64,000 bases of DNA from Verrucomicrobiales bacterium (GCA_037439785.1 JBBIVJ010000025.1:5935-69934), one strand, 5' to 3'. Numbered from the stretch's first letter, positions 53-5,863 are shown. Numbers and translations are program-made. Notes: a model not told the origin generated them from the sequence alone.

Positions 53-769
53 TCAGGGGACCGCCGGGGCCGGTTCCTCGAGGCCGTCGGGGTTTTGCCG
101 CCACCGGGCACCCCACCACCAGCACAGCCAGCGCCAGGTATCCACCACCGGGTCCAGCCGGCTGGGCCGCTTTGCCGGCACCGCCGGCACGGGGACAAAC
201 TCGATGCCCGCCCCCGCGGCGGCAAAGGCCAGGAGCAACTCCGACTCGAACTCGAAATGCTCGGTGCGGGTGCGCAACCGCGCCCACTCCGCGAGGTTCA
301 ACAGGCGGAAGCCGCACTGCGAATCGGGAAACTCCCGACCCGCCCGCCGGGACAGCCAGCGGCTCATGAGCCGGTTGACGTGGCGCCGCACCGCCGGCAT
401 CGGCGCCGGCCTGGCGAAGCGGTTACCCACCACCAGCGCCGCCCCGGTGCACCGGGCGCAGGCGAGAAATGCGGGGATGCACTCGGGCGGATGCTGGCCG
501 TCGCCGTCCAGCGTCACCGCCCACGTGGCGCCCCCGGCACGGGCTGCCGCCAGGCCGGCCCGGAGCGCCGCCCCTTTTCCCTGATTTTGCTCCTGGCGCA
601 GCACGCGCGCCCCCGCCGCTTCGGCCAGGTGGGGGGTGGCGTCAGTGGAGCCGTCGTCCACCACCCACACCACCGGGACCTGGCGCAGTGTGCGCCACAC
701 CAGGTCGGCGACGGTGCCGGCCTCGTTCCAGCAGGGAATCACGGCGGCAACAGCGTCCACGGGGTCCAT
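53..769 (-). CDS. family-2 glycosyltransferase (DPM1/GtrB-like)
   Basis: 238-aa ORF. It carries 'AAVIPCWNEAGT...VVWVVDDGSTD' and 'TLDGDGQH' motifs and a 'CGFRL' segment, all typical of GT2 enzymes. It is divergent from the rSAM gene, with the two start codons 12 bp apart. Confidence 0.85.
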   Translation of the reverse strand: MDPVDAVAAVIPCWNEAGTVADLVWRTLRQVPVVWVVDDGSTDATPHLAEAAGARVLRQEQNQGKGAALRAGLAAARAGGATWAVTLDGDGQHPPECIPAFLACARCTGAALVVGNRFARPAPMPAVRRHVNRLMSRWLSRRAGREFPDSQCGFRLLNLAEWARLRTRTEHFEFESELLLAFAAAGAGIEFVPVPAVPAKRPSRLDPVVDTWRWLCWWWGARWRQNPDGLEEPAPAVP

Positions 770-781
770 GCCCGCAGCGTA

Positions 782-3589: not shown

Positions 3590-4808
3590 ACCGCCCGCCC
3601 CGCGCCGCGTGGTCGTGACCGGCGCGGGCCTGGTCACCGCCCACGGCGTGGGCTGGCGCGCGAACGCGGAGGCCTTCCGTGCCGGCCGGCGAAGTTTCCG
3701 GCCGGTGACCCTGTTCGATGTCTCCCGCCAACGTGCCCGCCTGGCCGGGGAAGTGGACCTGCCCGCCCGCCTGCCGCCCGGCCGGCTCAGCGCCCGGCAC
3801 GAGCAGCGACTGGACCGCGCCGCGCGCCTGTTGCTGCTGGCGGCGCTGGAGGCCCGGGCGCAGGCCGGCTGGGAGGCCGGGGAGCCGCTGCCGGTGGTGC
3901 TCGGCACCAGCGCCGGCGGCATGGCGTTGGGGGAGGAGTACTTTCGCCAGGCCGTCCAACGCCCCGCCGCCCGCCGCCGCCAGCCCACCCGCGTCATCCA
4001 CTACCAGGCCCAACAACAGGGCCTGGACCTGCTGGCCGCCCTGGACCTCGAAGGCTCGGTGACCATCGTTTCCAACGCCTGCGCCTCCGGGGCCAACGCC
4101 CTGGGCCGCGCCTGGGACCTGGTGCGCCGCGGCCGCGCCGACCGCGTGCTGGCCGGCGGCTACGACGCGCTGGCGCAAACCCTCTTCGCCGGCTTCGACG
4201 CCCTCCAGGCCCTCTCGCCCGCCGGCTGCCGGCCCTTCGACCTCCACCGCGACGGCCTGACCCTGGGGGAAGGCGCCGCCGTGCTGTGCCTTGAATCGCT
4301 GGACGCCGCCCGCCGACGCGGCGCGGAAATCCTCGGGGAAATCCTCGGCTACGGCGCGGCGACGGATGTCCACCATCTGACCCAGCCCCACCCGGAAGGC
4401 GCCGCCGCACTCGCCGCCATGCAGTTGGCGTGCGCCCGTGCCGGCCTCGCGCCCGAACAGGTGGATTACCTCAACGCCCACGGCACCGGCACGCCGCTCA
4501 ACGACGCCGCCGAGGCGCAGGCCATCCACGCCTGGGCCGGGGCCGCTGCCGCCCGCCTGCCGGTCAGCTCGACCAAGGCCGGCATCGGCCACCTGCTGGG
4601 CGCGGCCGGGGCGGTCGAGGCGCTCGTCTGCCTGATGGCCCTGCGCGAGCAATGGCTGCCGCCACAACCGGCGCCGGAGACGCCGGACCCGCTGTGCCGC
4701 TTCCCCTTGGTGACGCAGCCAGCCGGGGCGCGGCTGCGCGTGGCCCTGTCCAACTCGTTCGGCTTCGGCGGCGCCAACGCCTGCCTGGTGCTCGGGAGGT
4801 GTCCATGA
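3567..4808 (+). CDS. beta-ketoacyl-ACP synthase II-like ketosynthase
   Basis: Active-site Cys 'SNACASGANALG', His motifs 'NAHGTGTPLND' and 'SSTKAGIGHLLGAAG', and C-terminal 'NSFGFGGANACLVLG'. The 5' end overlaps the previous gene by 23 nt, so the start is uncertain. Confidence 0.85.
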   Translation: MLFPPPAEPPAPRRVVVTGAGLVTAHGVGWRANAEAFRAGRRSFRPVTLFDVSRQRARLAGEVDLPARLPPGRLSARHEQRLDRAARLLLLAALEARAQAGWEAGEPLPVVLGTSAGGMALGEEYFRQAVQRPAARRRQPTRVIHYQAQQQGLDLLAALDLEGSVTIVSNACASGANALGRAWDLVRRGRADRVLAGGYDALAQTLFAGFDALQALSPAGCRPFDLHRDGLTLGEGAAVLCLESLDAARRRGAEILGEILGYGAATDVHHLTQPHPEGAAALAAMQLACARAGLAPEQVDYLNAHGTGTPLNDAAEAQAIHAWAGAAAARLPVSSTKAGIGHLLGAAGAVEALVCLMALREQWLPPQPAPETPDPLCRFPLVTQPAGARLRVALSNSFGFGGANACLVLGRCP

Positions 4809-5863
4809 CCCGCGTCTTCGTCACCGGTCTGGGCGCGGTCTCGCCCGCCGGCTGGGGGGTGGACGCCCTGCACGCCGCGCTGGCCGCCGGGGCGTCCCTG
4901 CCCTGCGTCCCGCTCCCACATCCGGGGCGGACCACCCCACTGCGAACGCGGCCGGTTCCGCCGGTCGGGTTGCCGGCCGAACTGGCGCGGCATCCCCGGC
5001 TGCGGCGCACCAGTCCGCTGGCCCAGTACGTCGTGGCCGCCGGCCTCGAAGCCTGGCGCGCAGCGGCGGGCCCTTCGCCCGCGGCCGCGGCCGCCGTGGG
5101 CCTCATCGTCTGCCTGACCGCCGGCTGCGTGAATTACACCCGTCGCTTTTACGAGGAAATCTTGCAGGACCCGGCCCACGCCAGCCCGCTGCTGTTTCCC
5201 GAGACGGTCTTCCACGCCCCGGCCAGTCACCTGGCGGCGGTGCTGGGCTGCACCGGCGAGAGCTGCACGCTGGTGGGCGACGAGGGCATGTTCCTCCAGG
5301 GCCTGGCGCTGGCGAGCGACTGGCTGGTCCGCGGGGTTGCGACGGCGGTGCTGGTCATCGGCGCGGACGAGTTGGACTGGCTGGTGGGCGGGGCGATGAA
5401 CCTCTTTGTGCCGGGCGCGGTGCACGCCGCCGGCGCCGGCGCCGTGTGTCTGCAAGGCGACCTTGCCCATCCCGCCGCACCGGCCGTGGAACTGGAGCGG
5501 GTGACCGCGGCCCGGTCTTACACCCCACGCCAATCACCGGCCGTGGCCGCGCGCGCCATGCGCCGGGAACTGCCCGTCGGCACCGCCGCGGAATGGCTCG
5601 TATTATCCACGCCGCCCCCCCGCCGCTTCGACGCCGCCGAGCGCACCGCCTGGGGCGACTGGCCGGGCCCGCGCCTGACGCCGCAACGGGTGTTGGGCAC
5701 CGCCTTCAATGCCGGCACCGCCTGGCAGGTCGTGGCCGCCTGCGACGCCCTCCAGCGCGGTCTGGCCCCCGCCGCCACGGTGTCGGTGGTGGGCACCCAC
5801 CAACAGGCCATCGGCGCGCGGTTTGTGGCGGCGGGCGCGGGCGAGGGCGGGGCCGCGCACTGA
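4805..5863 (+). CDS. ketosynthase-like protein lacking catalytic Cys/His motifs (chain-length-factor-like partner)
   Basis: Starts 'MTRVFVTGLGAVSPAG' with an ATGA overlap on the upstream KS stop. It has thiolase-fold-like spacing, but I could find no ACxS, HGTGT or GHxxGAAG motif. Confidence 0.65.
   Translation: MTRVFVTGLGAVSPAGWGVDALHAALAAGASLPCVPLPHPGRTTPLRTRPVPPVGLPAELARHPRLRRTSPLAQYVVAAGLEAWRAAAGPSPAAAAAVGLIVCLTAGCVNYTRRFYEEILQDPAHASPLLFPETVFHAPASHLAAVLGCTGESCTLVGDEGMFLQGLALASDWLVRGVATAVLVIGADELDWLVGGAMNLFVPGAVHAAGAGAVCLQGDLAHPAAPAVELERVTAARSYTPRQSPAVAARAMRRELPVGTAAEWLVLSTPPPRRFDAAERTAWGDWPGPRLTPQRVLGTAFNAGTAWQVVAACDALQRGLAPAATVSVVGTHQQAIGARFVAAGAGEGGAAH

Follow-up and report, generated by a model that had tools for sequence, protein, structure and literature searches.

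At the start of the window, the stretch of 64,000 nucleotides analysed here, which begins 5,934 bases into contig C25 of a Verrucomicrobiales metagenome-assembled genome (MAG, 96.8% complete), lies a compact group of genes around a ketosynthase (KS) and a KS-fold partner. The Verrucomicrobiota are part of the Planctomycetes-Verrucomicrobia-Chlamydiae (PVC) group. The G+C content of the window is 70-73%, and mechanical lists of open reading frames (ORFs) were full of spurious frames; domain searches singled out the real genes (Table 1). A preliminary description of this DNA had proposed five genes, namely a GT2 glycosyltransferase on one strand and, on the other, a HydE-like radical S-adenosylmethionine (SAM) enzyme, a cobalamin (B12)-dependent radical SAM enzyme, the KS and its partner. 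Pfam and NCBIfam profile searches confirmed all five with their positions and domains. On balance, these genes appear to close, on the downstream side, a larger cluster that comprises about 14 genes.

Table 1. Features at the start of the window (positions are those of the window unless a contig is given).
Feature	Position	Strand	Remarks
orf124, conserved 124-aa membrane protein (first 16 codons in window)	1-49, part of C25:5609-5983	-	3 nt downstream of GT2
GT2 glycosyltransferase, polyprenyl-phosphate-sugar-synthase type, ApeJ-like position	53-769	-	PF00535
HydE/PylB-like radical SAM enzyme, catalytic part	851-1876	+	PF04055; open frame 782-2164, likely start GTG 851
Two 83-nt direct repeats of REP-like modules	1926-2119	.	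Read through as C-terminal tail of HydE-like frame
Cobalamin-dependent (class B) radical SAM enzyme, divergent TIGR04072 member	2168-3589	+	PF02310 + PF04055
Active FabF-derived ketosynthase, cluster-dedicated	3567-4808	+	PF00109 + PF02801
Triad-less KS-fold partner, predicted chain-length-factor-like	4805-5863	+	Weak PF00109; coupled via ATGA overlap
848-aa protein, C-terminal FGE/SUMF1-type domain	6059-8605		PF03781, 138 bits; N-terminal two thirds unassigned

The tight packing that had been reported for the four plus-strand genes was exact in the sequence. The stop codon of the HydE-like frame (2162-2164) is separated by 3 nt from the ATG of the B12 gene, the ATG of the KS gene lies inside the B12 gene, whose TGA occupies positions 3587-3589 (an overlap of 23 nt), and the KS and partner genes share an ATGA at 4805-4808, with GGGAGG 5 nt upstream. 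The ATGA overlap indicates that the partner is translationally coupled to the KS. Concerning the 3-nt gap, the 3' end of the HydE-like frame, some 100 codons at about 1880-2164, turned out to consist of two copies of a repetitive extragenic palindromic (REP)-like element and not enzyme. The repeats, at 1926-2008 and 2037-2119, are 83 nt each, 93% identical and 111 nt apart. Their modules of 22-26 nt (for example GCAGGCCGGAGGCCTGCACCAC) gave 106 short-BLAST matches, a count that includes matches to themselves, spread over many contigs, and the tail derived from them is missing from most homologues of the protein. Because the REP-like element has no in-frame stop codon, it accounts both for the 3-nt gap and for the ~100 extra residues of the predicted protein. 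At the other end of the gene, homologues (~345 residues) start about 11 residues ahead of a conserved LEDVTARG motif, and GTG 851, not ATG 782, is therefore the likely start. The GT2 gene is divergent, as had been claimed, but the claimed spacer of 12 bp needs ATG 782; with GTG 851 it measures 81 bp.

We examined the KS in relation to the fatty acid synthase of the same genome. Cys172, His305, Lys337 and His342 were invariant across seven homologues, indicating an intact catalytic triad. Against the FabF model TIGR03150 the protein scored 346 bits, under the cut-off of 493.75. Among solved structures it scored 281 bits with FabF, 190 bits with Iga11 and 176 bits with 6qsp_A, which we take to be the aryl-polyene KS ApeO; the comparison with ApeO, Iga11 and amxFabF2 was made by these PDB bit scores, the tree described below having been built without aryl-polyene or anammox sequences. 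There are two KS genes in the whole genome, and the second lies in a canonical fabG-acpP-fabF locus (C8:37474-39621). Nineteen other genomes of the phylum each had a FabF with 49-61% identity to the C8 FabF, to which the KS of the window shows only 38-40% identity. A maximum-likelihood tree grouped these 19 housekeeping FabFs in one clade (98/98) and placed the KS of the window in another, long-branched one (100/99), where its ten companions include the KS of Pedosphaera parvula. The candidate role of a spare or housekeeping FabF was rejected on three grounds, the position outside the FabF clade, the score below the TIGR03150 cut-off and the separate fabG-acpP-fabF locus. These sequence comparisons indicate a KS with a role other than housekeeping fatty acid synthesis; the earlier judgement that it is catalytically complete and that the locus is not of the housekeeping fab kind thus stands.

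The partner had been described as a KS fold with neither the active-site Cys nor a His motif, and it had been conceded that an alignment might still reveal a triad. A profile alignment with the KS (hhalign, 308 columns) showed instead that the Cys falls on a gap or on Glu160, and that His305, Lys337 and His342 are replaced by Ser, Gln and Thr, respectively. Among relatives the Cys position is Glu, Asp or Pro. In Foldseek searches with the AlphaFold model of the partner (predicted local distance difference test score (pLDDT) 83, predicted template modelling (TM) score 0.87), the top matches were the chain-length factor (CLF) chains 6kxd_B (Iga12, E 4e-19, TM score 0.79) and 6smo_G, presumably AntE, the CLF of the AntDE ketosynthase complex; FabF structures ranked lower. 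Iga12 and the partner are similar in length and share 20% sequence identity. The partner gene adjoins the KS gene in all eight relatives (8/8). The alignment and the model thus predict a chain-length-factor-like protein with a catalytically dead KS fold. The pair does not look like that of an aromatic type II polyketide synthase: the Cys position of the partner is Glu, Asp, Pro or a gap rather than Gln, and domain searches detected no cyclase domain among the cluster genes.

The two radical SAM genes were then compared with characterized families. The HydE-like protein, with the CxxxCxxC motif CREDCTYC, scored 173 bits with the HydE model TIGR03956, under its cut-off of 254.6, 112 with PylB and 56 with BioB (NCBIfam); among solved relatives in the PDB, HydE was best at 150 bits, followed by PylB at 75. 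It thus shares the radical SAM subfamily and barrel of HydE and PylB. Unlike HydE, it misses the cut-off of the HydE model and is encoded in a genome without hydrogenase, PF02906, the [FeFe] hydrogenase domain, having not been found in this 96.8%-complete genome; in the loci examined, its gene always stands beside GT2, KS/CLF and halogenase genes. The candidate function of hydrogenase maturase was rejected on the score and on the missing hydrogenase. As for the B12 radical SAM protein, it scored 387 bits (386.5 in the genome scan) with TIGR04072 against a curated cut-off of 360. This model, "lipid biosynthesis B12-binding/radical SAM", is built around ladderane-type neighbourhoods. The score is near the bottom of the family, proteins from other lineages of the phylum reaching 414-634 bits. 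Its closest solved structure is TsrM (6wte, 125 bits). A literature search on TIGR04072 or its family name found no paper. With TIGR04072 passed and the partner model matching best the CLFs Iga12 and, as we presume, AntE, the suggestion that the locus combines a KS/CLF pair with radical SAM enzymes to make an unusual lipid or polyketide-like product, and recalls ladderane and aryl-polyene clusters, is supported.

The cluster had also been expected to continue upstream of the window. It does so with genes of the aryl-polyene type and a dehydratase, but without an acyl carrier protein (ACP) or ketoreductase in this copy. Upstream, C25 encodes the C-terminal portion of an MMPL exporter, an acyltransferase of the LpxL/lysophospholipid type, a LolA-like protein, a FabZ-like dehydratase, a lipobox-bearing ORF of 130 aa, an AMP-ligase (minus strand), orf244 and orf124. 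Contig C40 holds the remaining MMPL gene and a flavin-dependent halogenase, followed by an unrelated set of ABC sugar-transport genes. C25:1-542 and C40:573-32 overlap in reverse orientation inside the MMPL gene over 542 bp at 93% identity, and a relative, L002 (94% identical), spans the junction of the two contigs. The assembly therefore probably broke at a strain-variable site, splitting the cluster over two contigs of the MAG.

The halogenase contains the motifs GGGPAG at residue 19 and WFWLIP at residue 222 (GxGxxG and WxWxIP), and in alignment its Lys80 corresponds to the lysine of CndH, ChlB4 and Bmp2. These three and PltA are its best-matching solved structures, all of them halogenases for carrier-protein-bound substrates. 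All of the expected motifs being present, the sequence identifies a flavin-dependent halogenase of the carrier-protein-substrate type. A halogenase is also linked to the cluster in P. parvula and in L060, a metagenomic contig.

A set for attachment and export was found, comprising PF03279, PF00535, PF03548, PF03176 and the 130-aa ORF with signal peptide and lipobox (orf130). The acyltransferase matches lipid A and phosphatidylinositol mannoside (PIM) acyltransferase models, the dehydratase matches FabZ with 78 bits, and the LolA-like protein also matches, weakly, the flexirubin LolA2 model. GT2 scored 88 bits with PF00535; its best NCBIfam model, the polyprenyl-phospho-GalNAc synthase PpgS, gave 92 bits, under the cut-off of that model, and AglJ and ArnC-like models followed. 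The AMP-ligase is a short, generic ANL enzyme whose best relatives are fatty-acid (including FadD13), malonate and benzoate ligases at 62-83 bits.

No frame with a PP-binding domain was found on C25 or C40. On the other hand, an orphan ACP of 96 residues is encoded on the minus strand of C35 (15471-15698), between a purU-like gene and a gene for a large FG-GAP protein, and shares 51% identity with its counterpart in the P. parvula cluster. Though unlinked, it is likely the carrier protein of the cluster, judging from this similarity. Another small set of genes, with an SDR (short-chain dehydrogenase/reductase) ketoreductase, an AMP-ligase, an ACP, a 317-aa protein and a polysaccharide deacetylase, was noticed on the minus strand at C38:10800-15800; in some relatives, such as L062, the radical SAM/KS cluster likewise comes with a deacetylase.

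Of the small ORFs, orf124 is kept beside the cluster in L002-L007 with 53-87% identity and is 57% identical to a neighbour in P. parvula. Pfam and NCBIfam scans of orf130, orf244 and orf124 gave no match even at E = 10. We also observed that orf244 (C25:4896-5630, plus strand) always adjoins the AMP-ligase gene of the cluster, and that one homologue carries precomputed DUF8321/DUF8322 labels. Cys53 (where the region is present), His181 and Asp201 form a conserved pattern, tentatively suggesting a role in papain-like acyl transfer or as a thioesterase. The AlphaFold model of orf244 was poor (pLDDT 65), and Foldseek found no match below E = 0.08, with weak papain-like proteases among unrelated ones. 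Past position 5863, the first gene is that for the 848-aa protein with the FGE-type domain, and in relatives it is not kept with the cluster.

The preliminary description had made its reading depend on the linkage of the KS to the radical SAM genes in related genomes, and this linkage is indeed conserved. The gene order AMP-ligase, orf244, orf124, GT2, HydE-like, B12, KS and partner is shared with seven other assemblies at 48-96% protein identity, with varying radical SAM content, and the arrangement is therefore not due to chance. This bears directly on the possibility that the genes are unrelated neighbours, a spare FabF beside a HydE-like hydrogenase maturase, packed together as an effect of high G+C. 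A G+C content of 70% does make long open frames and overlaps easy, and the 3-nt gap does arise from a repeat element without a stop codon. However, the order is kept down to ~50% protein identity in the seven assemblies and in a cultured species, the KS branches apart from FabF in the tree, [FeFe] hydrogenase is missing from the 97%-complete genome and the HydE cut-off is missed. This explanation is already contradicted by synteny and by the tree, and we give it hardly any credence.

The radical SAM content differs from one relative to another. The B12 gene is present without the HydE-like and GT2 genes in L004 and L006; the HydE-like and B12 genes occur together in the window and in L002, L003 and L005; and L007 has both and a further, HpnJ-like B12 gene, located between the TIGR04072 gene and the KS gene. 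A gap of the same size lies between these two genes in L008, where the locus is truncated a little upstream of the B12 gene, and L008 probably has three radical SAM genes as well. The HydE-like gene occurs alone in P. parvula Ellin514, L060 and L062. The P. parvula and L060 versions consist of GT2, HydE-like, KS, partner, ketoreductase, ACP and one or more halogenase genes without the B12 enzyme, and also hold a methyltransferase; L062 contains GT2, the HydE-like gene, the KS, a split partner and an ACP. The P. parvula cluster is located at about 141-162 kb of record ABOX02000011. Because relatives hold either radical SAM gene alone, both or three, we regard these genes as exchangeable tailoring steps and not as scaffold-forming ones. 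Concerning GT2, its gene is divergent from the HydE-like gene in L002, L003, L005, L056, L060 and L061, and lies directly downstream of the TIGR04072 gene in many other lineages. In the phylum, 30 of 301 species had TIGR04072 above cut-off, and 2 of 301 had an orthologue-level HydE-like gene. The 20 of the 30 TIGR04072 loci that were inspected contained subsets of GT2, LpxL-like acyltransferase, KS (some with CLF), FabZ-like dehydratase, MMPL, LolA and AMP-ligase genes, with GT2 and KS in most of them. By gene content, the locus of the window thus joins the Pedosphaera-type core of KS, partner and HydE-like gene with a TIGR04072 gene. Separately, we noticed that L007 (CAZZPE010000015) and L008 (CAYTJG010000012) are titled 'uncultured Bifidobacteriaceae', yet carry a cluster of the Verrucomicrobiota type at 48-67% protein identity that includes MMPL and LpxL-like genes. 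Each is probably a mislabelled or misbinned MAG.

Taken together, the cluster probably serves to make a specialised acyl chain and to deliver it to the outer membrane. The proposal starts from the gene content, the catalytic state of the KS pair, its separation from FabF, the halogenase motifs and synteny; the starter unit, the degree of reduction, both radical SAM reactions and the anchor are supplied by analogy with work on aryl polyenes and on anammox Cluster I. The AMP-ligase would load a carboxylic acid starter onto the dedicated, C35-encoded ACP. The active KS, as a heterodimer with its triad-less partner, would extend the chain from malonyl-ACP, with the partner setting the length. A ketoreductase and the FabZ-like dehydratase may then process the chain, which would probably be unsaturated and polyene-like because no enoyl reductase belongs to the cluster; none was present in any cluster version examined (this MAG, P. 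parvula, L060 and L062). The halogenase could chlorinate or brominate the chain while it is still tethered. The B12 and HydE-like enzymes might each modify one unactivated carbon, by C-methylation, rearrangement or ring closure. Finally, the LpxL-like acyltransferase and GT2 would join the acid to a glycolipid or phospholipid anchor, and the MMPL pump, the LolA-like carrier and the lipoprotein would carry the product to the outer membrane.

Several points weigh against this proposal. The KS is nearer to FabF (281 bits) than to 6qsp_A (176 bits), which makes orthology with the genes of aryl-polyene (ape) clusters doubtful. The AMP-ligase shows no preference for aryl over alkyl acids, and no gene for an aryl starter (chorismate lyase or ammonia lyase) was found in the cluster. 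ACP, ketoreductase, thioesterase and methyltransferase genes were not found in this copy (C25 plus C40); the assignment of the C35 ACP rests on its identity to the P. parvula protein, and the join of C25 and C40 was deduced from the 93% overlap, the assembly not being continuous there. The missing enoyl reductase does not prove a polyene, as the housekeeping FabI could act. In addition, no product has been identified for any member of the cluster family, so that every chemical step is inferred.

Some of these points would also suit a different product, and this is the main rival explanation. The chain could be a saturated or mono-unsaturated fatty acyl chain, methylated or cyclised by the radical SAM enzymes and attached by the LpxL-like acyltransferase and GT2 to lipid A or another envelope glycolipid, with neither aryl head nor polyene. 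A KS derived from FabF and closer to it than to 6qsp_A, a dehydratase matching FabZ (78 bits), an AMP-ligase with FadD13 and other fatty-acid ligases among its relatives and an acyltransferase matching lipid A and PIM models would all suit such a chain. So would a B12 enzyme whose closest solved relative, TsrM, is a C-methyltransferase, and a cluster in which no aryl-starter gene was found. A flavin halogenase of the carrier-protein type, linked in several lineages, is difficult to accommodate, as it needs electron-rich substrates (aryl, pyrrole or enol). The lack of an enoyl reductase in the examined cluster versions and the best structural match of the partner, the CLF chain Iga12, also argue for something other than an ordinary fatty acyl chain, and we consider the latter unlikely.

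The locus also bears on a wider question. The chemistry of the cobalamin radical SAM enzyme beside pairs of KS and dead KS has been open since 2009, and bears on ladderane synthesis in anammox bacteria. In Verrucomicrobiota, the presence of such genes on an aryl-polyene-like chassis with halogenase, anchoring and exporter genes suggests a lipid or pigment of the outer membrane rather than bulk membrane fatty acid. With a constant KS/CLF core and radical SAM genes that come and go, natural variants allow the tailoring steps to be compared. A cultured aerobe, P. parvula Ellin514, carries the core cluster including the HydE-like gene, which makes the question experimentally approachable. We also considered a bolder idea, that the HydE-like enzyme represents a new functional branch of the HydE/PylB group acting in lipid or polyketide assembly, and that together with the TIGR04072 enzyme it gives rise to a halogenated, radical-shaped outer-membrane lipid. 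The enzyme may rearrange or cyclise the ACP-tethered chain or make the starter unit. This is speculative and we regard it as rather improbable; if true, the lipid would be a structure of Verrucomicrobiota without known counterpart, and P. parvula Ellin514 would offer a tractable route to the long-unsolved radical SAM chemistry of ladderane-type clusters.

The closest known gene sets are those termed ladderane-type. Neighbourhoods of this kind were reported in Kuenenia, Desulfotalea, Geobacter and Pelobacter. They combine radical SAM genes with genes for divergent FabF paralogues that lack active-site residues, and further encode a CoA ligase, an oxidoreductase, a glycosyltransferase and a small membrane protein; Desulfotalea yielded no ladderanes (Rattray et al. 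2009, PMC2649909). Clusters that antiSMASH reports as 'ladderane' are common among soil Verrucomicrobia (Sharrar et al. 2020, PMC7298704). In a 2026 preprint, the anammox pair was shown experimentally to form a KS/CLF-like heterodimer and to decarboxylate malonyl-ACP, and Iga12 is the CLF of the ishigamide system (10.64898/2026.05.19.726425); in a 2026 review the role of the B12 enzyme still stands as a proposal. The cluster type is thus not new, having been known since 2009, and the locus described here is an informative variant of it and no new system. In common with Cluster I of Kuenenia stuttgartiensis (kuste3603-3608) and its syntenic counterparts in Desulfotalea, Geobacter and Pelobacter, it has a B12 radical SAM protein above cut-off, an active and a triad-less FabF paralogue and a FabZ-like dehydratase. 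It also has the accessory set described in 2009 (a CoA-ligase-like enzyme, a glycosyltransferase, a flavoenzyme and a small membrane protein), and shares with all non-anammox cases that no product is identified. In contrast, the cluster of the window has no ACP and has an extra HydE-like gene, its flavoenzyme is a flavin halogenase and not a phytoene-desaturase homologue, and its KS falls in a clade separate from the TIGR04072-adjacent KSs of the tree (18 other rows). The dead partner has ~350 residues, against 412 in PDB chain 9s5h_C, which we take to be amxFabFmut, and its Cys position is Glu, Asp, Pro or a gap, against Val or Thr in the anammox proteins.

These likenesses raise the question of ladderanes themselves, lipids with fused cyclobutanes whose synthesis has been proposed for the anammox clusters. 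The B12 enzyme passes TIGR04072, a model named after ladderane neighbourhoods, and the trio of B12 radical SAM, KS and dead KS mirrors kuste3605-3607. Nevertheless, the B12 enzyme barely passes (387 against 360), relatives in the same KS clade lack the B12 gene, and the phytoene-desaturase-like partner is absent. In the literature consulted, ladderanes are known from anammox bacteria only, and the host here belongs to the Verrucomicrobiales; Desulfotalea carries the cluster type without ladderanes having been found (PMC2649909), and the link between genes and ladderanes is unproven even in anammox bacteria. Ladderane synthesis by this cluster is, in our view, extremely improbable.

In its chassis the cluster resembles the ape clusters of Gram-negative bacteria (Johnston et al. 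2021, PMC8253772; Grammbitter et al. 2020, 10.1101/2020.12.19.423268), among them those of the xanthomonadin and flexirubin subtypes. Both have a pair of KS and CLF, a stand-alone adenylating enzyme, a dehydratase of the FabZ/FabA fold, an LpxL/lysophospholipid-type acyltransferase, a GT2 enzyme, a LolA-like protein, an MMPL/RND exporter and a small lipoprotein, and relatives of the window cluster add ketoreductase, ACP and methyltransferase. Halogenation occurs in xanthomonadins and flexirubins. To our knowledge, ape clusters carry no radical SAM enzymes. They have two KSs (ApeO and ApeR) where the cluster of the window has one, and it lacks the thioesterase (ApeK) and tandem ACPs; an aryl head group in its product is conjectural. 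In aryl-polyene synthesis, ApeH loads the starter, ApeO and ApeC extend it, ApeD and ApeJ join the acid to an anchor, and export involves ApeM, ApeL and ApeN (PMC8253772). The export and anchoring set of the window cluster matches the roles of E. coli ApeD, ApeJ, ApeL, ApeM and ApeH (PMC8253772). The lipid anchor of aryl polyenes contains galactosamine-phosphate-glycerol (10.1101/2020.12.19.423268), and the best model of GT2, with a score under its cut-off, is the polyprenyl-phospho-GalNAc synthase. The ishigamide pair Iga11/Iga12 (PDB 6kxd) is similar in that the partner has its best structural match in Iga12 and the KS matches Iga11. The neighbours differ, serving attachment and export of an envelope lipid and not amide formation, and including radical SAM genes. 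All things considered, the cluster is likely a member of the catalogued, uncharacterised 'ladderane-type' (TIGR04072) family, built on an aryl-polyene-like chassis.

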